From an uncultured Solibacteraceae bacterium (GTDB lineage: Bacteria > Acidobacteriota > Vicinamibacteria > Vicinamibacterales > SCN-69-37): a stretch of 64,000 nt of DNA. Under the pieces are notes generated by a model. The model did no database searches and was not told the DNA's origin. It worked only from the letters and a program-made list of their open reading frames with translations. Both the position numbers and the translations under genes were made by a program. Shown in pieces: positions 2,031 through 34,988 of this stretch. The DNA lies in NCBI GenBank assembly GCA_964423815.1, contig CAYRGW010000003.1, positions 45,731 through 109,730 on the forward strand, written 5' to 3'. The stretch's first letter is position 1. The number at the start of each line of letters is the position of its first letter.

Positions 2031-3209
2031 TTACGCGATCACGCGCACCATCGAGACGCCATCCACCTTGCGCAGCTGGTCCACCACGGCGGCCGGCACA
2101 GCCGTCGCCGTATCCACCACCCCGTAAACCAGATCGCCACGCGTGCCGCTCGTGGACGTCGTGACGGTCACCCCGGCGGTGGCGAGCGCGGCCAGGAGTG
2201 TTGAGGCGAGCGGCGACGTCGCGGCGCCGGCAAACACCACGCGGTGCGCGAACGGCCCCGTCGTGATGACGTGCGGGAAGTTCACAGCGTTACGCACGTC
2301 CCCGCGATCGAGAAAGTCGCGCACCTGATCGGCGACCATCACCGCGCAGTTGTCCTCGGCTTCCGCGGTCGATGCCCCGAGGTGCGGCAAGGTCACACAG
2401 CGCGGATGGCGGATCGTGGCCGCGGTCGGAAAATCGCTGACGTACGCGTGCAGCGCGCCCGCGTCGAGCGCGGCGACAATCGCGGCTTCATCCACGATGC
2501 CCTCGCGCGCAAAGTTCACGATCACCGCACTTGATTTCAGCAACTGCAGGCGGTCCGCGCTCACCAGACCGCGTGTGGCGGGCATCAGTGGCACGTGGAG
2601 CGACACGTAGTCGGCCACCCGGAACAACTCGTCGAGTGATCGAAGATGGGTCACGCGCGGATCGAGTTGCCCCGCGGCCTCGACGGTGAGCGCCGGGTCA
2701 AACCCGACCACACGCATGCCGAGTGCGACGCCGGCGTTGGCCACACGCCCGCCGATGGCACCGAGGCCGATCACAGCCAGAGTGCGGCCCGACAATTCAA
2801 AGCCGGCAAATGCTTTTTTGCCGGCCTCCACCGCCTTGTGCAGCGTCGCATCATCGCCCTCAAGACCACGCGCGAAGAGCCAGCCGGGACCGATGGAGCG
2901 CGAGGCCATGATGAGACCCGCGATGACCAGCTCCTTGACGGCGTTGGCGTTGGCGCCTGGGGCGTTAAACACCGGCACACCGCGGGTGGTCATCGCCGGC
3001 ACCGGAATGTTGTTGGTGCCGCTGCCGGCGCGGCCAATCGCCTTCACCGTGTCGGCGATCGGCATGGTGTGCAGGTCCGCGGACCGCACCAGCATCGCAT
3101 CAGGATCGACGATGGTGGCACCGGTCTCGTAACGCGCCGCGTCGAGCCGCGCCAATCCAACCGGTGAAATGTTGTTGAGGGTGAGGATGCGAAACCGGGA
3201 AGCGCTCAT
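2031..3209 (-). CDS. serA: D-3-phosphoglycerate dehydrogenase family protein (D-2-hydroxyacid dehydrogenase with a C-terminal ACT-like domain)
   Basis: 392 aa. It carries the NAD Rossmann motif GLGAIGGRVA, the catalytic-region motif ..NFAREGIVDE..., and a short C-terminal regulatory-like domain. Confidence 0.75.
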   Translation of the reverse strand: MSASRFRILTLNNISPVGLARLDAARYETGATIVDPDAMLVRSADLHTMPIADTVKAIGRAGSGTNNIPVPAMTTRGVPVFNAPGANANAVKELVIAGLIMASRSIGPGWLFARGLEGDDATLHKAVEAGKKAFAGFELSGRTLAVIGLGAIGGRVANAGVALGMRVVGFDPALTVEAAGQLDPRVTHLRSLDELFRVADYVSLHVPLMPATRGLVSADRLQLLKSSAVIVNFAREGIVDEAAIVAALDAGALHAYVSDFPTAATIRHPRCVTLPHLGASTAEAEDNCAVMVADQVRDFLDRGDVRNAVNFPHVITTGPFAHRVVFAGAATSPLASTLLAALATAGVTVTTSTSGTRGDLVYGVVDTATAVPAAVVDQLRKVDGVSMVRVIA

Positions 3210-3227
3210 GCACTCACTAGAATACTC

Positions 3228-4133
3228 TCAGGCGCGCACACGCAACGCCGGCCTGGACCGGACGATGGCAATGCCGGCGACAATCACGACCGCCGCAATA
3301 ATCATCGTGAATCTGAAGGGTTCGCCCAGCAGCAACGTGCCCAGCGCCACGGCAATCACCGGGTTGACGTAGGTGTAGAGCGACACCGTGGCAATCGGCA
3401 GGTGTCGCAGGGCGTAGGAATACGCGGCAAACGCGACCAGAGAACCCGCCACAATCAGATACAACAGCGCCGACCCCGTTCGCGGGTTCAGGCTGATCAC
3501 CGACCACTCGCCGGCGGCGGTGCCGATCGCGAGCATGAACAGACCGCCAAAAAACATCTGCACGGCAGCGACCGTGAGCACATTACGCGTCACCGCGTGT
3601 CGTTTGGTGTACGAGGACGAGACGGCCCACCCGGCACACGCGACCTGCAGCGCAAGCACTCCGAGCAGGACCTGCCGTCCATTGGCACCTTCGAGCGTCA
3701 GATCGGGCCACACCAGCAGGACAATGCCGCTGAACCCGACTGCAAGGCCAAACAACTTGCGGCCGGAGAGTCGCTCCCCTCCGGGAAACAGCCCGTCCAC
3801 TGCCACCATCCAGAACGGTGAGGTGGCGATGACCACGGCCGTGATCCCGCTCGCGAGATATTGTTCGCCCCAGTTCACGCCACCGTTGCCAAGCGTGATC
3901 ATCAGAAAGCCGAGCAGCGCGAGACTGCCCCACTCGGAGAACGGCGGAAGTTTTTCGCCGCGCGCCACAAGGATGACTCCAAGCACGACACCGGCGATCA
4001 GGTAGCGGATGCCGCCCATCAGGAACGGTGGAATTGTCTCGAGCGCAACCTTGATGCCGAGATAGGTGGTGCCCCAGATGATGCAGACCGCGGCGAACGC
4101 GATCCAGGCATTGCGACGAACAACCGGTGTCAT
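3228..4133 (-). CDS. EamA/DMT-family drug/metabolite transporter
   Basis: 301 aa with about 10 hydrophobic segments forming two EamA-like repeats. Its start overlaps the stop of the upstream Lrp-family gene by 1 nt. Confidence 0.8.
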   Translation of the reverse strand: MTPVVRRNAWIAFAAVCIIWGTTYLGIKVALETIPPFLMGGIRYLIAGVVLGVILVARGEKLPPFSEWGSLALLGFLMITLGNGGVNWGEQYLASGITAVVIATSPFWMVAVDGLFPGGERLSGRKLFGLAVGFSGIVLLVWPDLTLEGANGRQVLLGVLALQVACAGWAVSSSYTKRHAVTRNVLTVAAVQMFFGGLFMLAIGTAAGEWSVISLNPRTGSALLYLIVAGSLVAFAAYSYALRHLPIATVSLYTYVNPVIAVALGTLLLGEPFRFTMIIAAVVIVAGIAIVRSRPALRVRA

Positions 4134-4618
4134 CAGCGAACGGCGGACGTCGCCGCCTCCAACATGAGGTGCGTGCTTTCTTTGTGCGTGCCCAGCACGA
4201 TCGTGGTGCGTGTGGTGCGCACACCCTTGATGCGCCCCACCTCGGTCTTGAGCAACTCGCCGAGATGTTCGGTGTCGCGCGCGCGGATCTTTACGAGGAA
4301 GCAGTCCTCCCCCGCCACGTGATGCACTTCAAGGACGCCGGGCACCTGTGCGAGCGCGTCACCGACACGGTCTTCTTCGCCACCCACCTCATTGGTCCGC
4401 ACCGAGATGAAGGCCAGCAGCGGACACCCGGCACTGCGGGGGTCCACCAGGGCGGTGTAACCACGCACCACCTGCCGCGCTTCGAGCTTTCGCAGTCGCT
4501 CCAGCACCGCTGACGGCGCCAGACCCACGGCCTTGGCAATGTCCACCTGCGACACCCGACCGTTCTCCTGCAGGAGGGTCAAAATTTTGACATCGATGGG
4601 GTCTTTGAGGTCGGACAT
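4133..4618 (-). CDS. Lrp/AsnC-family transcriptional regulator
   Basis: 161 aa. The N-terminal HTH reads D..D.KILTLLQENGRVSQVDIAKAVGLAPSAVLERLRKLE and is followed by an AsnC-type ligand-binding domain. Confidence 0.9.
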   Translation of the reverse strand: MSDLKDPIDVKILTLLQENGRVSQVDIAKAVGLAPSAVLERLRKLEARQVVRGYTALVDPRSAGCPLLAFISVRTNEVGGEEDRVGDALAQVPGVLEVHHVAGEDCFLVKIRARDTEHLGELLKTEVGRIKGVRTTRTTIVLGTHKESTHLMLEAATSAVR

Positions 4619-4619
4619 A

Positions 4620-4643
4620 GGCGTATTATTTCATCAATACGCC
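4620..4643. promoter_or_regulatory. Palindrome GGCGTATT-N8-AATACGCC abutting the Lrp-family start codon; candidate autoregulatory operator
   Basis: Two perfect 8-bp inverted arms lie at 4620-4627 and 4636-4643, within an AT-rich spacer immediately upstream of the Lrp/AsnC gene on the minus strand. Confidence 0.4.
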
Positions 4644-4729
4644 ATATGTATAAATTTAGTTCTGCGGTAGCGGCTCTATACCGAATGTTGGTCCTGTTTT
4701 GAGGCGTCCGTACCTGTGGCCTTTCGCCT

Positions 4730-5695
4730 CTAACCTTTGGCCTTCGGCACCGGTTTCAGCAGCACCCTCTCGAAACGCCGATGGAAGGCGGTGAACGGCC
4801 CGTCCGAGTCGTCGGTCTCGATGTGTTTGCGAACCTGATGGATCTTGGCGTCGAGGTCATCGGCGGCGGCCAGAATGAAGGCCTCGACTGTCATCGGCTC
4901 CACGGGTGACCCGTGGACTTTTGCGCCGTGATGCGACACAACGAGATGTTCAAGCTGCACGCGCTGGTCGACTGGAAAGTCGGGGATCGCGAGGGCCACT
5001 TCGCGTACAAGCTGCGCGCCCATCGTGATGTGCCCCACCAGGTTGCCCTCGACGGAATATTCCGTGGTCACTCCGTAGGACAACTCCTGCAACTTGCCGA
5101 TGTCGTGAAGGATGGCACCCGCCACCAACAGATCACGATCGGCGTCGTACGATGCCGCGAGGAACTTCACGCTGTCGATGATCTTCAGCACGTGCTCCAA
5201 CAACCCACCACGATACGCGTGATGCACCGATTGAGCGGCCGGCCAGATCCGCAACCGATCACCGTACATCGTCAGCACCCGCGCCAGCAGCTCGCGAATG
5301 AAGGCGGACTCGATGGACGCGATATGCGCCTGGAGTTCCTGCCACATCTCATCAAGCGGTCGCGGAGAGCACGGGATGCAGTCTTCCTCGCGGAAGCCGT
5401 CGAGTGCGTCACGCGGAGCGTCCACGCGTCGAATTTTGTCGAGGACCAGTTCGAGGCGCTGATTAAACAGATTGCCGCGGGCCTGGACCTTGACGAATTC
5501 GCCGGCGTCGAATTCTTCGCGCATGATGTCGACGTCCTGAAACACTTTGGCTTTGATCTCACCCGAGGTGTCCTGCAGGACCAGCGCGAGATACGCGCCG
5601 CCTTTCCCCGTGCGCACTTCCTTGCGCGCGCATAGAAAAAATCCCCATCCGGAGGACGAGCCGTCAAGATCGGCAATACGGGAAAGTGTCGCCAT
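4730..5695 (-). CDS. OB-fold + HD-domain phosphohydrolase (YhaM-like 3'-5' exoribonuclease family)
   Basis: An N-terminal OB-like segment (..YLALVLQDTSGEIKAKVFQD..FVKVQARGNLFNQRLELVL) is followed by HD motifs (..HHAYRGGLLEHV.. / ..LHDIGK..). I chose the start MATLSRI.. at 5695 because it overlaps the SDR stop as TAATG. Confidence 0.75.
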   Translation of the reverse strand: MATLSRIADLDGSSSGWGFFLCARKEVRTGKGGAYLALVLQDTSGEIKAKVFQDVDIMREEFDAGEFVKVQARGNLFNQRLELVLDKIRRVDAPRDALDGFREEDCIPCSPRPLDEMWQELQAHIASIESAFIRELLARVLTMYGDRLRIWPAAQSVHHAYRGGLLEHVLKIIDSVKFLAASYDADRDLLVAGAILHDIGKLQELSYGVTTEYSVEGNLVGHITMGAQLVREVALAIPDFPVDQRVQLEHLVVSHHGAKVHGSPVEPMTVEAFILAAADDLDAKIHQVRKHIETDDSDGPFTAFHRRFERVLLKPVPKAKG

Positions 5696-8071: not shown

Positions 8072-8117
8072 GGCGAGACCTTCAGCTGCTCTGGCGCGGC
8101 TAAAGCCGACGCCCTAC
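8068..8117. repeat. REP-like elements in the convergent gap between the kinase and the sigma gene
   Basis: The region reads GTAGGGCGAGACCTTCAGC ... GGCGCGGCTAAAGCCGACGCCCTAC. This matches the 25-nt motif GGC-NN-GGCT-RAAGCC-NNN-GCCCTAC that recurs at 18.5, 20.3, 25.1 and 33.9 kb. Confidence 0.6.
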
Positions 8118-17300: not shown

Positions 17301-17965
17301 GAACGTTGTGTCGCGGCGTCGTACTGGCGGACCGATTCAATGATGTCGCCGATGAACTCCAGGCGAATCGGTTGCGCTTCGGACGTGGGGTAGAGGTCCA
17401 CCACGCCACCGCGGACAAAAAACTCGCCGTGCTGGTCGACGGGATCCTCGGGGACAAATCCTGCGTCCACGAGTCGTTCACGCAGGACCTGCGGATCGAT
17501 CTCGATGCCTGGCTTGAGGAACAGGCTTGCCTCGGCGAACCTCGCAGGGTCGCTCAGCCGTGGCGGGAGCGCGCGTGCGGAGGCAATAACAAGCCGGGCC
17601 GAGCCGGTCGTCAGCCCGGTCAGCGCCCGGGCACGGGCCGATGCCACCTCAAGGTGGGGGGCGAGTCCGCGGTATGGGTCCACTTCCTGGGAGGGAAAGG
17701 GCAGGACGGCCTGGGCGACCTGGCCGTCGGAGAGTCCGAGCATCGCGCCGAGGAAAAATCGCGCGTCGCCGGTCATTTGTTCGACGTCGGCGTCTGTCGG
17801 GACGACCAGCACCACCACCGAATCCTGGGCCATCGCCGCCGCATGAAATGCGGTGGCGCCTGGTCCGAGGCCGGCCAGACGAGGCACGGCCCTGGTCAGG
17901 CCCGCGCGGGATGCGGCTGACTTGAGGAGCGAACGAAAGGCGAGCGACGCAGACGGATGGAGCAC
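14369..17965 (-). CDS. mfd: Transcription-repair coupling factor Mfd
   Basis: 1198 aa. It has a UvrB-homology N-terminus, the CarD/RNAP-interaction domain (..DLKVGDLVVHIDNGIGRFVGL..), and superfamily-2 translocase motifs (..LLCGDVGYGKTEVA.., DEEQRFGV, ..QLYQLRGRVGRS..). Confidence 0.95.
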   Translation of the reverse strand: MLHPSASLAFRSLLKSAASRAGLTRAVPRLAGLGPGATAFHAAAMAQDSVVVLVVPTDADVEQMTGDARFFLGAMLGLSDGQVAQAVLPFPSQEVDPYRGLAPHLEVASARARALTGLTTGSARLVIASARALPPRLSDPARFAEASLFLKPGIEIDPQVLRERLVDAGFVPEDPVDQHGEFFVRGGVVDLYPTSEAQPIRLEFIGDIIESVRQYDAATQRSLKALDAITLSPQRDLLPKPGFDDSAESALAGEADDRSASFIAYARRAGATVLVYEIDDVTQKGMSLEEQWRQSAADALARNPATPAFEHFAQPWEEIAGWLDKARRISQLALDDTNDVHVPCQPVLEYRGRLGDWVEEIRRAQQRGETTVFVAATQGRAERTMELLAGYEVRARAIGDNEDLTRAQVLVTTGHLSRGFHLPTGTFLIFAETDLFEEERRSGEKRKSAARTFVSDFRDLKVGDLVVHIDNGIGRFVGLRKMAVGVGEPQEFMELRYAGEDKMFVPLDRLDLVQKYTGGATASLDKLGGATWEKAKTRVKKAMRDMAEELLKLYAARKAVVGHAFTADSHWQQEFDDAFPYDLTPDQQSAINDITRDMESTIPMDRLLCGDVGYGKTEVAMRAAFKAVMDGKQVAFLAPTTVLAFQHERTLKERFAGFPVRIDMVSGFRTKSEQQQALEKLASGQLDIIVGTHRLLSKDVAFRDLGLLVVDEEQRFGVSHKERIKQMRKKVDVLTMTATPIPRTLNMSLVGIRDMSVIETPPRDRLSIQTHVVKFDQDVIARAMRTELERGGQIYFVHNRVESIGSIAGLIQRLVPEVKIGIGHGQMGDGDLEKVMVDFVAHKYDVLVATTIVENGLDISNANTIIINRADRYGLSQLYQLRGRVGRSDRRAYAYLLIPPEQTLSPIARKRLAAIREFSDLGSGFRIAALDLEIRGAGNLLGGQQSGHIEAVGFDMYTKLLEETIRELKGEELEDDRRAAVNLKLNLRIDESYITDMNQRLAAYRRMASVRTVAEVDALITELSDRYGHMPESVLNLGEYARIRVTADRIGLDTLDREGNNVVFRFRQDAKLDPVWLLNMVQNRSDLTLLPPAVIKLDMTKPVGPPAQPKPVNAPPPGKLKPKSELPGQGRYIKTARPIDVPGRESWWATRATAGEVTGGFSRQEVLAEVPPDPRAPGGLFERVRQVLDEVARGLTTG

Positions 17966-18002
17966 AGGTGGTGCGACCCACCATGGTAACGCAGTGGGGG
18001 CG

Positions 18003-18479
18003 CTACTTCAGTGGGCGGGACTGCACAGTGGTCACGATATTGGTGGTGGACCAGCCTTGTTCGATGGGCATCCGGACCACCGTGCCGCCGCGGGCCTCAA
18101 CAACATCGCGTCCGACGATCTTGTCCGCCGCCCAATCGGCGCCCTTCACCAGGACGTCCGGTTGCACGGCCGAGATGATCTCGAACGGCGTGTCTTCGTC
18201 AAAAACGACGACCGCGTCGACGCAGGCCAGGGCACCGAGGATCTCGGCACGTTCGTGTTCCGGGGTGATCGGGCGGGTGGGGCCCTTGATGGCACTCACC
18301 GATCTGTCCGAGTTGAGTCCGATGATGAGGGTGTCCCCTTCAGCCCTCGCGGCCTGTAAGTACCGGACGTGGCCGGGGTGCAGAATGTCGAACACGCCGT
18401 TGGTAAAGACGATGCGTTTGCCGGCCGCGCGTGTGCGCGTGGCCCAGTCCGCCGCCGCGGCTCGAGAGGTCAGAAACAC
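18003..18479 (-). CDS. D-beta-D-heptose-1-phosphate adenylyltransferase-like cytidylyltransferase (RfaE/HldE domain II family)
   Basis: The motifs ..RIVFTNGVFDILHPGHVRYLQAARAEGDTLIIGLNSDRSV.. and ..VLVKGADW..GG.V..STT.I are present. The ORF track extends to 18584, but that extension (MAWLKPPPYRANALQ..) is encoded by REP elements. I therefore prefer the in-frame GTG at 18479. Confidence 0.75.
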   Translation of the reverse strand: MFLTSRAAAADWATRTRAAGKRIVFTNGVFDILHPGHVRYLQAARAEGDTLIIGLNSDRSVSAIKGPTRPITPEHERAEILGALACVDAVVVFDEDTPFEIISAVQPDVLVKGADWAADKIVGRDVVEARGGTVVRMPIEQGWSTTNIVTTVQSRPLK

Positions 18480-18537
18480 CCCGCTAGGGTAGCAGACCGC
18501 GCCGTTCGTCTTCGTTGTCCATCTTCGTAGGGCGGCG

Positions 18538-18660
18538 GCTTGTAGGGCGTTGGCTCTGTAGGGCGGTGGCTTCAGCCACGCCATGGTGCGTCTTCGTAGG
18601 GCAGCGGCTTTGCAGGGCGTTTTCGTAGGGCGTTGGCTTTAGCCACGCCATCGCGTCCTG
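18538..18660. repeat. REP-like array with five GTAGGGC-type units
   Basis: Units start at 18538, 18553, 18569, 18607 and 18636. Examples are GTAGGGCGGTGGCTTCAGCCACGCC and GTAGGGCGTTGGCTTTAGCCACGCC. Each carries a GGCT-N2-AGCC hairpin core. Confidence 0.75.
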
Positions 18661-18686
18661 AACCGCGCCAATCGACTTCGCCCCAG

Positions 18687-18889
18687 CGCCAGCGCATGGG
18701 TGAATCCCAGTGGTGCCCTCCGGCTCGATGACGCGTAAAAAGCGGTGCTCCAGGGGGTTCGTCTCGTCGTCCAGCGCGTGGGGCCCCCCAGCCCCACGCG
18801 GAGTCACCCCCATCCGCGCCGCTTTTTGTGCTTCGCCCTCGCGTCACTCGCAGTCGGGCACCACCGGGATCCGCCCATCCGCTGGCGCC
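18687..18889. repeat. Left copy of a ~204-bp inverted repeat flanking the HNH gene
   Basis: It aligns by eye with the reverse complement of 20017-20220 at roughly 80-85% identity. A 46-nt perfect core at 18813-18858 matches 20048-20093. There is an internal long imperfect palindrome, AAAAAGCGG..CGCGTGGGG-loop-CCCCACGCG..CCGCTTTTT. Confidence 0.8.
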
Positions 18890-18917
18890 TCGTCCCTCTC
18901 CGTGGGGCGGTGGCTTT

Positions 18918-18942
18918 GTAGGGCGGTGGCTTTAGCCACGCC
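18918..18942. repeat. REP-like unit between the left inverted repeat and the HNH gene
   Basis: The sequence is GTAGGGCGGTGGCTTTAGCCACGCC. Together with its following ~20 nt (ATCGCGTCTTGAACCGCGCC) it nearly duplicates 18636-18680. Confidence 0.7.
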
Positions 18943-19035
18943 ATCGCGTCTTGAACCGCGCCGTCTTTCTTCGTAGGGCGCGGTGAACTTGAACCGCGCT
19001 AACGCTCGATCACAGGCTGGGTTCGTCGGGTGCGC

Positions 19036-20007
19036 TCAGGAAGTGCCGCGGCCGAATATGTTCACCCGGTGGTATTCAAGAAAGGCCTGCTGTTCACGGT
19101 TGAACTGACCAACTCGAACGCCAGCGTCAATCCCCCATTTCTCAAGCACCTCTGACCTGACGGAAGGAACAACAAGCAATTGTTCATCCGATGAGAAGGT
19201 CACATAGCCTTTGTCGAATAGATGGTCGACGTGCGGAGACAGAAGTAGACCGTTTTCTCCAGAGAGGCGTTCCGTATCAGTAGCGGTTTTCCACGGTTTG
19301 ATGTGGCTGGCCCTCAGATGTTTCGGATCGGATACGCCTGTGACCCGGCAGCTCTCTTCGACGAGGAGCACGTTCGCTCGAAACACGCCCTGGCCACGTC
19401 TGGCCTTGATCAGTTGATCACGGAAGGTGGGGCCAAGCGTCGACAGGGTCTCTGAGTCGTCCGGAAGTTCCTCGTCTGGTGTGTTCGGAAATCCCGTTAC
19501 TGATGACAGTGCCTCTTCGTACTGATCGAAGCCAATCAACTGAATCAGCGCGTGGGCAAGGTGATCGGGGACCGCCGCGAGGTAGACAGACTGCAGTCCG
19601 TTCCCATTGGCCTGAAGTGGCGAATACTTCGTCGGCAGAAAAGGGCGAAGGACATCAATGTGATCCTTGGGCCGGATTGGCCGATCAAACTCGCAATAAA
19701 AGACAGGAACAAACCACCCTTCCTGTGACCAGTTCAGGCCAGCGCTTCCAAAGTTTGGTTTCGGTCCAATCTGGGCTCGTCCAACGACTACGGACAGGGC
19801 CTGAATCCTCGTGTTGTTGAAAGAGAAGACGACGTCCCCAGGTTCCAGGAGACGCATATTCTCGTAGAACTCGTTTCGTGCGCCATCAGTACGCGTTCTG
19901 GGAGACCAAAGGAAGTTTCCCTTCAGCTCTGTCTCGTAGGTTTGATTCTGGTTCACCCACCAGTAGCGCACGAATGGGATTATGCGCCGAATCGGGTGCG
20001 CTGACAT
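19036..20007 (-). CDS. HNH_2-type nuclease with an N-terminal 'WWVNQNQ' PUA/EVE-like reader-type domain; putative modification-dependent (type IV-like) restriction enzyme
   Basis: The C-terminal nuclease motif reads RGQGVFRANVLLVEESCRVTGVSDPKHLRASHIKPW......NGLLLSPHVDHLFDKGYVTF. The N-terminus reads RYWWVNQNQTYETELKGNFLWSPRTRTDGARNEFYENMRLLEPGDVVFSF. I chose the start at Met78 of the track ORF (20007) because residues 1-77 are encoded by the flanking repeat. Two hand-counted 60-nt samples give 48-53% GC, against about 60-65% for the background. Confidence 0.75.
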   Translation of the reverse strand: MSAHPIRRIIPFVRYWWVNQNQTYETELKGNFLWSPRTRTDGARNEFYENMRLLEPGDVVFSFNNTRIQALSVVVGRAQIGPKPNFGSAGLNWSQEGWFVPVFYCEFDRPIRPKDHIDVLRPFLPTKYSPLQANGNGLQSVYLAAVPDHLAHALIQLIGFDQYEEALSSVTGFPNTPDEELPDDSETLSTLGPTFRDQLIKARRGQGVFRANVLLVEESCRVTGVSDPKHLRASHIKPWKTATDTERLSGENGLLLSPHVDHLFDKGYVTFSSDEQLLVVPSVRSEVLEKWGIDAGVRVGQFNREQQAFLEYHRVNIFGRGTS

Positions 20008-20016
20008 GCGCGGCGG

Positions 20017-20220
20017 GGCGACAGCGTGTGGCCGGATTCCCGTGGGGCCCGACTGCGAGTGACGCGAGGGCGAAGCACAAAAAGCGGCGCGGACGGGGGC
20101 GACACCGGATGGGGCTGGGGGTCCCCATGCGCTGGACGACCAGACAAAGTCCCGGGAGTGCCGCTTTTTCCGCGTCATCGAGCCGGAGGGCCACAGCGGG
20201 GATCCGGCCACGCGCTGGCG
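20017..20220. repeat. Right copy of the ~204-bp inverted repeat flanking the HNH gene
   Basis: This is the reverse-complement partner of 18687-18889 and begins 10 nt upstream of the HNH start codon. It has the same internal A5-GCGG...CCGC-T5 palindrome. Confidence 0.8.
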
Positions 20221-20255
20221 TGGGGTCGCGGCCTTCAAGGCAGGCCGCCTGCTTT

Positions 20256-20325
20256 GGCGGGGCTAAAGCCCTCGCCCTACACAGAATGGCGAAACACATT
20301 GGCCTGGCTGAAGCCCAGGCCCTAC
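20256..20325. repeat. Two REP-like units to the right of the cassette
   Basis: The units are GGCGGGGCTAAAGCCCTCGCCCTAC (20256-20280) and GGCCTGGCTGAAGCCCAGGCCCTAC (20301-20325). They are in the opposite orientation to the 18.5-kb array. Confidence 0.75.
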
Positions 20326-20351
20326 ATGGCGAAGGGGATTAGGAAGGCGTG

Positions 20352-21701
20352 TTACTTCAGGGGTTTGAACTTCACGCCTGGGGAGAATTCCCAGGTGTGT
20401 TTCGGACGGTAGATGCCGACGTCCTTGATGCGGGACTTCACGCGGAAGGTGTGGAGCAGGCGATGGTAGTCGTACGGGGCGCCGTCGCGTTTGTGCACGG
20501 CGACGTCGAGTTTGTACGTGCCCTCGACGAGGTCCAGCGAGTCGATCACCAGGGTGACCTTCTGGTCACCTTCGAGGCGGTCGGCCTCAAATTCCTCAAG
20601 GTCGGTGTTGGTGCCGTAGACCGATACGCCGTCGGCGGTGAACAACCCGACGCCAAATACGAAGTCACGCACAGGCGACGTCGCACGGATACCCAGACTC
20701 ACGCGCATGGGCTCACCTGTGTGAAACACCTGCGTCGGCTGGCCATCGGTCGTCTCGAAGGCAACCGACGTAATCTCCACGCCGCCTGATCCCCAGCGGC
20801 CTTCGCCGGCGCGGTTCATGTCGGTGGAGACTTCTGTCGCGTCGACCGGTCCCGCCTTCGCCACGGCTTCGGCGGGCAAGCCCGCTGAGTTTTCCAGCTC
20901 GCCTGCACCCAGACGCGCTTTTTCGTCCGACGCCTTGAGGAAACGTTCTTCCTGGCGAGCCACGTCGGTCACGTAGGTACCGACGACACGCGTCGGGTCG
21001 CCTTCGGCCTTCTTCTCACCAGCATCGAGCCAGACGGCTTCGTCGCAGAATCGCTCGACCAGGCCAAGGGAGTGGGTGACAAGGAGAATGGTCTTGCCGC
21101 GACGTTTGAACTCGCCGAACTTGTCGAGACACTTGTGCGTGAAGCCTTCATCACCGACGGCCAGCACTTCATCCACCAGCAACACGTCCGGGTCCACGTG
21201 AATGGCCACGGCGAAACCCAGGCGCATATACATGCCGGACGAGTAGGTCTTAACAGGCGCGTCGATGAACTCGGTCAGTTCGGCAAACTCAACGATCTCG
21301 TCGAACCGCCTGGTGATCTCCTTTTTGGAGAGTCCAAGCATGATGCCGTTGATAAAAACGTTTTCGCGACCAGAGATTTCAGGATGGAAACCGGCGCCAA
21401 GTTCGATCAGCGCCGAGATGCGGCCTTCGACTTTCACTACGCCGATCGTGGGTTTCGTGATGCCCGCGACGAGTTTCAGCGCGGTGCTTTTGCCGGAACC
21501 GTTACGACCAACGACGCCGTACGTGCAGCCTTTCGGCACGGTGAACGAGACATTCTTCAGCGCCTGAAACGTTTCCTCTGGGCGGAGTCGGCGGACCAGG
21601 TCTCCAGAAAGCAGCGCGCTCTTCAGCGTGGAGAACTGGCGGCCGCCGTAACGGCGATAGATCTTCGAGACGTCAATGAGCTCAATCGCAGGCGAACTCA
21701 T
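20352..21701 (-). CDS. ABC transporter ATP-binding protein (Wzt/TagH-like polysaccharide exporter with a C-terminal substrate-binding-type domain)
   Basis: 449 aa. It has Walker A GRNGSGKST, the signature YSSGMYMRLGFA, Walker B LLVDEVLAVGD, and a ~200-aa beta-rich C-terminal extension. Confidence 0.88.
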   Translation of the reverse strand: MSSPAIELIDVSKIYRRYGGRQFSTLKSALLSGDLVRRLRPEETFQALKNVSFTVPKGCTYGVVGRNGSGKSTALKLVAGITKPTIGVVKVEGRISALIELGAGFHPEISGRENVFINGIMLGLSKKEITRRFDEIVEFAELTEFIDAPVKTYSSGMYMRLGFAVAIHVDPDVLLVDEVLAVGDEGFTHKCLDKFGEFKRRGKTILLVTHSLGLVERFCDEAVWLDAGEKKAEGDPTRVVGTYVTDVARQEERFLKASDEKARLGAGELENSAGLPAEAVAKAGPVDATEVSTDMNRAGEGRWGSGGVEITSVAFETTDGQPTQVFHTGEPMRVSLGIRATSPVRDFVFGVGLFTADGVSVYGTNTDLEEFEADRLEGDQKVTLVIDSLDLVEGTYKLDVAVHKRDGAPYDYHRLLHTFRVKSRIKDVGIYRPKHTWEFSPGVKFKPLK

Positions 21702-23684: not shown

Positions 23685-25171
<1,487 letters not shown>

Positions 25172-33627: not shown

Positions 33628-34988
33628 TTGCCGATACAGAAGTGACTGAAAATATGCGCCAGCACATCGTCTGCCGTCCGTCGCCCGGTCAGCGCTTCGA
33701 GGACCTGACGCGCATCACCCAACTCAGCCAGCACAATTTCTTCGGTGGCACCGGCCTCAATCGCCGCAGTCGCGCGACCGACCGCATCACGCGCGGTTTG
33801 TGCACACTGCAGATGGCGCTGATTGGACACCATCGGCGTGTCGCGCAGATCTTCGCTGTCCGAGAGCGCAGTGATGATGGTCAGGCGCAGTTGGTCTAAT
33901 CCTTCGCTGGTGCGCGAGGAGACAGGCATGACGCGGCAGGGCTGAAGCCCTTGCCCTACATCTGAGGCCGCCAGATCGCTCTTGTTGGCGACGATGATTC
34001 GCGGCTCGCGCACGACGTCAAGGATTGCCCGGTCCTCGTCGGTCAGCGGCTGCGAACCGTCGAGCACCACAAGCGTCACCGCTGCGACCTGAAATGCCTC
34101 GTGCGCACGACGCACACCTTCGGCCTCGATCTCGTCGAGTGCATCCCGCACACCTGCCGTATCCACCAAAGTGATCGGGACGCCGTTGATGTCCACCACT
34201 TCGGTCAGGACATCGCGTGTGGTGCCGGCCACGGCAGTCACGATCGCGCGACCGCTGCCAACCAGCGCGTTGAAGAGACTGGACTTGCCGACATTGGGCC
34301 GACCTGCGATCACCACCAGTCGGCCTTCACGAATCAGCCGCCCGCGGCGGCCGTCTTTTAACAGCGCGTCGAGCAGGGCTTCGGATCGGACGAGTCCCGC
34401 ACGCGCATCGTCGCGGGTGATGAAGTGGTAGCCCTCATCAGGAAAATCAAGGGACGCCTCGAGTTTGGCGGCCACCTCAAACAACTGCGTGTCGATCTCC
34501 GCGATTCGTTTGGTGAGTGTGCCTTCAAGTTGATCAACCGCAACCCGTGCCTGCAGAGGAGTGACGGCCTCGATGAGATCGGCCACGGCTTCAGCCTGCA
34601 CAAGATCGAGGCGACCGTTGGTGTACGCGCGGAACGTAAACTCACCAGGCTGGGCCAGGCGCGCGCCACGATCACACACGAGCGTGACGATCTGCTGCAG
34701 CACGGCCGGACTCCCATGCCCGCTCACCTCCACCACATCGTCGCCCGTGTACGAATGGGGCGCCTGGAACCAGGTGACCACCACGTGATCGATCACGCTG
34801 CCGTCGGATGGACTTGTCAGCCGGGTGAAGGTGGCGTGCCGCGGTTGCAGCACGTCAATGCCGGTGAGCGTCGTCAGCATGCTGACGGCGTCCGGCCCCG
34901 CGATACGCACCACACCAATGCCGCCACGCCCCGGAGGCGTGGCAATCGCGACGATGGTGTCGGCCGTGGAAAAAGCCGAGAAGGCCAC
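33624..34988 (-). CDS. mnmE: tRNA modification GTPase MnmE (TrmE)
   Basis: 454 aa, with ..[18 protein letters not shown].., the G1 motif [14 protein letters not shown] and the C-terminal FCIGK. Confidence 0.96.

Follow-up and report, generated by a model that had tools for sequence, protein, structure and literature searches.

An EVE-HNH restriction endonuclease gene between inverted, REP-associated palindromes in the wzt/rfaE interval of Vicinamibacterales

Among described bacterial repeats, the closest to the element reported here are the repetitive extragenic palindromes (REPs) and bacterial interspersed mosaic elements (BIMEs), for which roles in termination and mRNA stabilisation have been proposed, together with the ERIC/IRU (enterobacterial repetitive intergenic consensus/intergenic repeat unit) sequences of enterobacteria and the Correia elements of Neisseria, which can influence termination and RNase processing. 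The closest characterised enzyme is VcaM4I (PDB 6YEX), an EVE-HNH restriction endonuclease dependent on 5-methylcytosine (5mC) or 5-hydroxymethylcytosine (5hmC) (PMC7897488). We analysed a 64-kb window, the whole stretch of DNA to which positions refer unless another locus is named, from contig CAYRGW010000003.1 (GCA_964423815.1) of an uncultured Solibacteraceae bacterium (Vicinamibacterales). In this window a nuclease gene of the VcaM4I type lies between an rfaE-like gene and wzt, flanked by two inverted copies of a ~205-nt palindromic unit, u1 on the left and u2 on the right. Comparison loci are labelled L001-L102 and comparison proteins P0001-P0121; copy counts rest on the window, on metagenome-assembled genomes (MAGs) in GTDB and on metagenome loci.

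Our overall account, which we consider probable as a whole, has four parts: a nuclease of a characterised family, a hotspot that forms a clean, small defence islet, a BIME-like family of units, and a role of the unit as a boundary hairpin.

The nuclease gene and its inverted flanking units

The gene product matches 6YEX over its whole length (phmmer, E = 1e-86; residues 14-319 vs. 2-307). In the 6YEX alignment, VcaM4I residues E15, W22, P24, W82, Q128 and Y130 are identical in the window protein, and the equivalent of the catalytic H224 is kept within an SHIKPW motif (the roles of the pocket and intercalating residues, which concern flipped 5mC/5hmC, and of the catalytic histidine are taken from PMC7897488). 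Pfam HNH_2 (PF13391, E = 1.3e-12) and PADLOC HNH models match as well, and there are more than 7,500 homologues, usually 309-313 aa long. Judged by its sequence, the gene is a member of the VcaM4I family of EVE-HNH restriction endonucleases, with an N-terminal EVE and a C-terminal HNH domain; cleavage of DNA containing 5mC or 5hmC and restriction of modified phage are predicted from family membership. The presence of such an enzyme in an acidobacterium implies that phages with modified DNA exert pressure in groundwater and soil. The gene has a GC content of 54.5% in a window of 62%, which bears out the initial description of a low-GC gene inside a higher-GC chromosome, and its horizontal acquisition and insertion between housekeeping genes are supported.

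Homologue lengths and the VcaM4I alignment argue for a start at GTG 19971 (311 aa) rather than ATG 20007, and we take GTG 19971 to be the most likely start. An exact-protein look-up with the 323-aa ATG version returned no record; one Logan gene caller took the ATG start (P0001). With the GTG start, the right unit ends ~45 nt before the start codon, and not 10 nt before it as first stated. The sequence ATGTCA-17-CATAAT (20007-19979, - strand) is the sole sigma-70-like match in 18300-20500, and L006, L007, L011 and L101 share a CATAAT or TATAAT box placed, as in the window (19969-19984), exactly 7 nt ahead of the GTG. Because this promoter-like site lies between u2 and the start, with its spacing conserved in relatives, the nuclease appears to have a promoter of its own there; the initial annotation had wrongly placed any promoter inside the repeat. 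The mRNA is probably leaderless and GTG-initiated.

A repeat search of the window recovers inverted arms at 18706-18892 and 20014-20200 (187 nt, 86% complementary), and the window scan found no other long local inverted repeats. In global alignment, 18686-18889 and the reverse complement of 20017-20220 are 85.7% identical over 203 aligned columns, consistent with the 80-85% first estimated by eye for the two ~204-bp copies. The corresponding value in direct orientation is 75.7%; since inverted identity exceeds direct identity, u1 and u2 are genuine inverted copies, beyond being two palindromes. A perfect core shared by the units, initially put at 46 nt, does exist, with a length of 47 nt (18813-18859 = reverse complement of 20047-20093); a 43-mer of this core occurs exactly twice in the window (0 expected). 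The same arrangement is found in the independent assemblies L001-L003 (99.7-100% identity), in the strain relative L102 (95%) and in another species (L006), and the order u1-gene-u2 is therefore no assembly artefact.

The inverted symmetry is carried outward by REP arrays, as the first-pass annotation had noted, the GTAG-REPs to the left being on the + strand and those to the right on the - strand. The GTAG-REP pattern GTAGGGCG-NN-GGCTTnAGCC-NN-GCC occurs eight times in the window (0 expected by chance), five times at the locus and otherwise at 8093-8117, 25140-25164 and 33935-33959, and the stems of these REPs covary. REPs at the locus lie at 18558, 18625, 18918 and 18973 (left, + strand) and at 20256 and 20301 (right, - strand). 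The one at 18973-18999 belongs to a second REP type (GTAGGGCGCGGTG...TTGAACCGCGC) that is also present in L006, L093 and L101, and the segment 18915-18962 is 94% identical to 18622-18669. Because the REPs continue the inverted symmetry, the inverted block is REP-REP-unit, ~350 bp in length. The termini of the unit itself (GCGCCAGCG...CGCTGGCGC) lack the GTAG tag, which is confined to the adjoining 25-41-nt REPs. Coordinates are collected in Table 1.

Table 1. Features between and including the two housekeeping genes that flank the nuclease locus (positions in the window)
Feature	Position	Strand	Details
rfaE/hldE-like cytidylyltransferase, left housekeeping neighbour	18003..18478	-	Pfam CTP_transf_like, E 1e-19; orthologues 154-158 aa
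GTAG-tagged REP array	18525..18670	+	full copies 18558-18582 and 18625-18649; partial heads 18527, 18542
Unit u1, ~205-nt extragenic palindrome, forward on +	18686..18889	+	inner A5-GCGG/CCGC-T5 hairpin 18737-18827; nhmmer envelope 18680-18893
REP pair between u1 and the HNH gene's 3' end	18918..18999	+	18918-18942, GGCTTTAGCC type; 18973-18999, TTGAACCGCGC type
EVE-HNH modification-dependent (type IV) restriction endonuclease (predicted), VcaM4I/TspA15I family, 311 aa	19036..19971	-	6YEX; Pfam HNH_2
Promoter-like ATGTCA-17-CATAAT	19979..20007	-	sigma-70-like scan; -10 box 7 nt before GTG
Unit u2, forward on -	20017..20220	-	directly downstream of wzt; orthologous to units in L005, L006, L007, L011, L097-100
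Two GTAG-REPs between the wzt stop codon and u2	20256..20325	-	20256-20280, 20301-20325; part of inverted repeat pairs
wzt, ABC-transporter ATPase with Wzt_C domain, right housekeeping neighbour	20352..21701	-	Pfam

On the left, the longest rfaE-like open reading frame (ORF; 193 aa from ATG 18584, window 18003-18584) extends into the REP array, and the orthologues suggest that the gene probably starts at GTG 18478. The 557-nt spacer, which is filled with repeats, yielded no promoter-like site for rfaE. On the right, a protein identical to the window Wzt is present in JGI and groundwater metagenome contigs. Several short-read contigs end exactly at unit or REP edges (L003 at window 20224, L102 at window 18970, L007, L008); with short-read contigs breaking there repeatedly, the locus can be expected to be fragmented or missing in many MAGs.

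The insertion site between wzt and rfaE

A Wzt-based metagenome scan gave 80 related loci (~575 kb). In ~65 relatives (Wzt 66-75% identical), rfaE or mfd comes directly after wzt, at an estimated distance of -36 to +144 nt; a check for empty sites at the rfaE-wzt junction, proposed in the first-pass annotation, is thus answered by these ~65 relatives. Because wzt and rfaE (or mfd) are adjacent or overlapping in these more distant Vicinamibacterales, the wzt-rfaE slot is an insertion. Among the 80 loci it is confined to a clade with Wzt at least 80% identical, and its contents vary. The slot holds a unit, the EVE-HNH gene and an inverted unit in the window, L006 and L102; a unit, EVE-HNH, an ORF of 72 aa and, on the opposite strand, a membrane ORF of 233 aa in L007-L011; and EVE-HNH, then immediately the membrane ORF, then REPs in L101. 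Other members of the clade carry a C5 cytosine methylase (PF00145, E = 1e-65) with a 480-aa partner and no unit (L013), a unit with a Schlafen-like/AAA_16 helicase, two passenger ORFs and FitA-RHH/PIN (L097-L100), or a unit, half unit or no unit and then FitA/PIN abutting rfaE (L005, L094-L096).

The relatives fall into clade I (window, L006 and L005/94/95; Wzt 91-92%) and clade II (L007, L011, L097 and L100; 95-97%), and within clade II the cargo differs, being HNH in some and helicase in others. The L006 HNH gene (3968-4882) is 70% identical to that of the window (19036-19971) at a Wzt identity of 92%, and clade II HNH genes are 82-84% identical to the window gene at a Wzt identity of 82% (L007, 84%). 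This mismatch points to replacement of HNH alleles between conserved flanks. Both cargo and alleles turn over in the slot. The presence of an m5C methylase and an m5C-dependent nuclease in one slot of different lineages would be expected for mutually exclusive systems, and the methylase taking the place of the HNH gene in L013 is an indirect hint at the predicted specificity of the nuclease. The passenger ORFs recur beside different cargoes: one of 72 aa, which L101 lacks, and an opposite-strand membrane ORF of 233-296 aa (L011 5165-6078, L007 7009-7302, L013 5351-5902, L097 5933-6849, L101 1022-1912); they have no Pfam matches and are absent from the window.

We propose that foreign DNA entered between formerly adjacent or overlapping wzt and rfaE in one clade of the Vicinamibacterales and that the site would then have become a defence-gene hotspot. 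Neither an integrase nor a Y1 transposase is among the called genes of the locus in L001, L011 and L094-L100. The simplest route for cargo to be exchanged among relatives would be homologous recombination within the conserved flanks. As a compact hotspot without an integrase, the wzt/rfaE junction provides a natural example for the exchange of immune genes in an uncultured phylum.

Structure, copies and history of the unit

Each unit is a long imperfect palindrome that forms a ~70-bp hairpin. Folded as RNA, u1 reaches -133.9 kcal/mol (z = -10.5) and the reverse complement of u2 -110.1 kcal/mol (z = -3.9), and both strands of the unit fold about equally well. The palindrome had been described as bounded by A5-GCGG...CCGC-T5; palindrome and motif are real (18737-18745/18819-18827 and 20079-20087/20161-20169), but the motif encloses only the inner ~90 nt and not the whole unit. 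The consensus hairpin of seven units has 70 pairs, with 93.7% of cells paired. Two-sided changes occur at 28 pairs, against 15.3 ± 2.3 in shuffled alignments (0 of 500 reached 28) and 2-8 in slid controls. Covariation is highest in the outer helix (19 of 31 pairs), which is nearly rewritten between type A (clade I) and type B (clade II) units, and helix 2 (CCTCCGGCTCGA / CTCGCAGTCGG) and a one-sided, 11-13-nt bulge (CTTCGC...) are invariant among units. The changes are mainly full Watson-Crick replacements with few G-U intermediates. Since Watson-Crick replacements dominate and both strands fold, selection on an RNA or single-stranded DNA hairpin and arm-to-arm template switching are inseparable by sequence.

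Units occur in a long form of ~205 nt and a short form of ~155 nt in which the apex is deleted. The wzt-proximal unit of L102 (1-320, compared with window 20008-20285) has a 37-nt hairpin-like insertion at the apex, and its left arm has several substitutions, with the right arm identical over ~110 nt. In L095/96 the unit is cleanly lost between CCCCG/CCCG micro-repeats, and L094 retains the left arm only. With cmscan (E up to 1), neither strand of 17500-21500 had a match to Rfam families, among them HEARO/IscB-associated and Acido motifs. A coding role for the unit is ruled out, as the long/short indels are not multiples of three and ORFs change frame between copies; 6S RNA, retron, IscB-omega-RNA and CIRCE were dropped because they do not match the element in phylogenetic distribution, partner genes or position.

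The first-pass annotation had proposed a copy-number check of the 204-bp unit, and copies beyond the window were indeed found. In a GTDB-wide scan, the invariant 22-mer of the unit has one exact match per genome in three MAGs. Two of these are the syntenic relatives L005 and L006; in the third, L004 (Vicinamibacterales), a full unit without cargo separates purC from groES. Six-frame translations of the unit, concatenated and searched against a 5.8-billion-protein set (a search of uncertain sensitivity), gave a single match, which led to L093. Here three tandem units (2849-3914; period of 353 nt, 94% overall identity, units 99-100% identical) lie between convergent genes, each period consisting of one hairpin unit followed by three 41-nt GTAG-REPs. 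The entry P0121, a 249-aa protein, is a miscall of the L093 array. Searches with an nhmmer profile turned up no further copies in the window or in the ~575 kb of related loci, the 22-mer had no matches in viral contigs, and u1 had no blastn match in plasmid and phage collections. With the viral, phage and plasmid searches empty, nothing links the unit to a known mobile element. Copy number stands at two units in 64 kb and one exact 22-mer match per GTDB MAG (n = 3), with three distinct loci overall, and every occurrence is intergenic.

The units form a real family that is associated with REPs, spread over three or more kinds of locus and apparently low in copy number. The unit is also independent of cargo: the wzt-proximal unit is present beside HNH, helicase and toxin-antitoxin (TA) cargo, and HNH homologues in other contexts (L012, and P0007 as judged by gene spacing) lack units. 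The second, inverted unit is confined to the window and L006 lineages, in which u1 and the L006 unit L006b are 96% identical. The wzt-proximal unit is old, predating the clade I/II split, and its type A/B split co-diverges with the host. The history that we propose is that the wzt-proximal unit has been inherited since before that split, outlasting changes of cargo, and that the second copy would have arisen on the rfaE side in the window/L006 lineage as an inverted duplication of the REP-REP-unit block. The family would travel and amplify with GTAG-REPs as a BIME-like composite block of ~350 bp. To our knowledge, such long extragenic palindromes have not been described in this phylum before. 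Associated with GTAG-REPs and disruptive to short-read assemblies, this ~205-nt structured palindrome is a previously undescribed extragenic element of Vicinamibacterales.

Possible roles of the unit and comparison with known systems

The reading that we favour is that each unit may act as a transcript-boundary hairpin (terminator and/or 3'-end stabiliser), partitioning the wz operon, the self-promoted nuclease and rfaE-mfd. Read as RNA, a forward unit has the order A5, GC stem, apex, GC stem, UUUUUGUGCUU, with a core of A5-GCGGYRC...GCGCCGC-T5GTGCTT, an enclosed hairpin of 60-80 nt and a U-rich, one-sided bulge after the inner stem. Forward units lie 3' of wzt in all lineages, 3' of purC in L004 and 3' of a 539-aa gene in L093. 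The promoter-like site of the HNH gene starts immediately past u2, and since both window units point forward into the nuclease gene, transcription from either side meets a forward unit first. The insulator or terminator reading of the first-pass annotation is thus plausible, although its functional side is something that we infer; we give a terminator or stabiliser role close to an even chance, perhaps slightly less. The units would at the same time be dispensable, partly selfish or neutral DNA and not the ends of a nuclease-carrying transposon. Loss in L095/96, the half unit of L094, the apex deletions of the short form and the apex insertion of L102 attest to this dispensability.

Several observations weigh against a boundary role. 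A simple terminator scan did not call the units, because the A5/T5-bounded hairpin far exceeds the length of a canonical terminator; a window scan for T5 runs after hairpins was not discriminating, and compact canonical terminators are rare in the window. The inner hairpin alone would suffice for a terminator, and the covarying outer helix would extend past the presumed point of termination. The U-tract is poor in type B units (L007, L011, L097). Ancestrally, wzt and rfaE adjoined each other, so strong terminators would exert polarity on rfaE-mfd, barring a promoter in the REPs or unit, and none was detected for rfaE-mfd in the REP/unit region. Copy number appears very low for a family of the REP/BIME type, no mobilising enzyme was identified for the unit, and the paired changes could have come about via arm-to-arm template switching and not selection.

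That last point belongs to a competing explanation, in which the units are functionless selfish or neutral palindromes that correct themselves by arm-to-arm template switching and accumulate with REPs in non-essential, insertion-made DNA, any effects on transcription being incidental. Close relatives in which the unit is cleanly lost, truncated or altered by apex indels are consistent with it, as are the absence of the unit from the L013 version of the hotspot, the similar folding of the two strands, the Watson-Crick replacements with few G-U intermediates and the tandem amplification in L093 at 99-100% identity. However, the wzt-proximal copy was kept across the clade I/II split despite cargo turnover, and forward orientation 3' of genes is consistent. 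Self-correction would also tend to erase asymmetry, yet helix 2 and the bulge are invariant where the outer helix has been rewritten. We judge purely neutral palindromes unlikely, while according them real weight.

The invariant asymmetric core could also be what a recombinase or single-stranded DNA transposase encoded elsewhere recognises, in the manner of attC sites or of the subterminal hairpins of IS200/IS605. Two inverted units would then box an exchangeable cassette, and a unit does lie at the left edge of the slot for three cargoes. Homology between lineages with different cargo breaks within ~10 nt of the 3' end of the unit, the divergent L006 HNH allele sits between conserved units (u1/L006b, 96%), and the core is conserved, with covarying stems. 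Set against this, L013 has cargo without a unit, in clade II a unit flanks the cargo on just one side, and the L004 and L093 units have no cargo; the window units are inverted and not direct, gene lists of the locus include no integrase or Y1 transposase, and homologous recombination in the wzt/unit and 72-aa ORF/rfaE flanks explains the same data. A recombination handle is, in our estimate, decidedly improbable. The more specific form, in which the unit would be an attC-like, structure-specific docking or recombination element of a defence-cassette exchange site with no linked integrase and the window a fully boxed cassette, is more doubtful again. Integron attC sites are likewise imperfect palindromes with covarying stems, conserved asymmetry and a position at the cassette boundary; here, in contrast, the units are inverted, R/L core boxes (GTTRRRY) and a nearby IntI are lacking, and there are units without cassettes and a cassette without a unit. 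One feature is left unexplained, namely the asymmetric core that is conserved, with covarying stems, at the slot's edge; no new mechanism is required. A hairpin serving as a recombination handle would, if true, be of wider interest, and the present evidence does not demand that reading.

Read-through from wzt over both units could produce an RNA panhandle of ~200 bp of double-stranded RNA, cut by RNase III, that silences a potentially toxic nuclease. The inter-unit duplex (-388 kcal/mol) is far more stable than the two separate hairpins (-109 and -139, together -248 kcal/mol), and the isolated HNH domain of VcaM4I is toxic in Escherichia coli (PMC7897488). The panhandle between 5' and 3' untranslated regions suggested by the first-pass annotation is thus thermodynamically possible for a read-through transcript. 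The promoter-like site and probable leaderless start lie downstream of u2, however, and the site is conserved, so that the nuclease's own normal mRNA would lack the 5' copy. Local hairpins form first during transcription, the HNH orthologues of L007, L011 and L101 manage without a second unit, and full-length EVE-HNH enzymes are not toxic to unmodified hosts. This makes silencing through a panhandle highly unlikely.

The earlier suggestion of a miniature inverted-repeat transposable element pair or composite transposon, whose terminal inverted repeats moved the nuclease here, has in its favour the inverted orientation, the low-GC cargo and units at other loci, but we give it almost no credence: HNH orthologues sit at the same site in one-unit versions (L007, L011, L101), the upstream unit is also found beside the Schlafen-like helicase or FitA/PIN, units lack cargo in L004 and L093, HNH homologues elsewhere (L012, P0007) lack units, the unit is absent from the plasmid, phage and viral collections searched, and no target-site duplications are visible at the unit ends. 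An invertible, phase-variable segment was dropped as well, since all independent assemblies have the same orientation and the promoter would invert with the gene.

Compared with described systems, the window protein is collinear and full-length with the enzymes VcaM4I, TspA15I and CmeDI (PMC7897488, PMC6765204), with the EVE pocket, linker and HNH histidine in a single-gene type IV arrangement; it differs in being only ~50% identical and in its acidobacterial host, and its specificity and activity are predicted only. As in other defence hotspots and islets flanked by core genes, a fixed housekeeping junction holds alternative cargoes (type IV restriction endonuclease, type II restriction-modification, helicase, TA pair) that vary among close relatives, and distant ones have empty sites. 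The wzt/rfaE slot differs in its small size (1-3 genes), in lacking an integrase or mobile-element backbone, and in the structured palindrome that marks one edge.

Like REPs and BIMEs, GTAG-REPs (PMC3733652) and REPINs (PMC3116915), the units are extragenic, palindromic and hairpin-forming, and they are interleaved with GTAG-REPs; large REP clusters show tandem reiteration with adjacent DNA (PMC3733652), as in L093. At ~205 nt, however, the unit is longer than the 20-40 nt of these repeats, has no GTAG/CGTC tag of its own and is apparently of very low copy; no RAYT was identified, no search aimed at one having been made. ERIC/IRU and Correia elements are likewise imperfect palindromes of 100-200 bp, intergenic and transcribed, with long and short variants that differ by an internal deletion. 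They share no sequence similarity with the unit, the TA duplication and integration host factor site of Correia elements are not seen, and known copies run to tens to hundreds per genome, compared with one to three here. The units are best read as a new family of long extragenic palindromes, apparently low in copy number and of the BIME/ERIC/Correia type.

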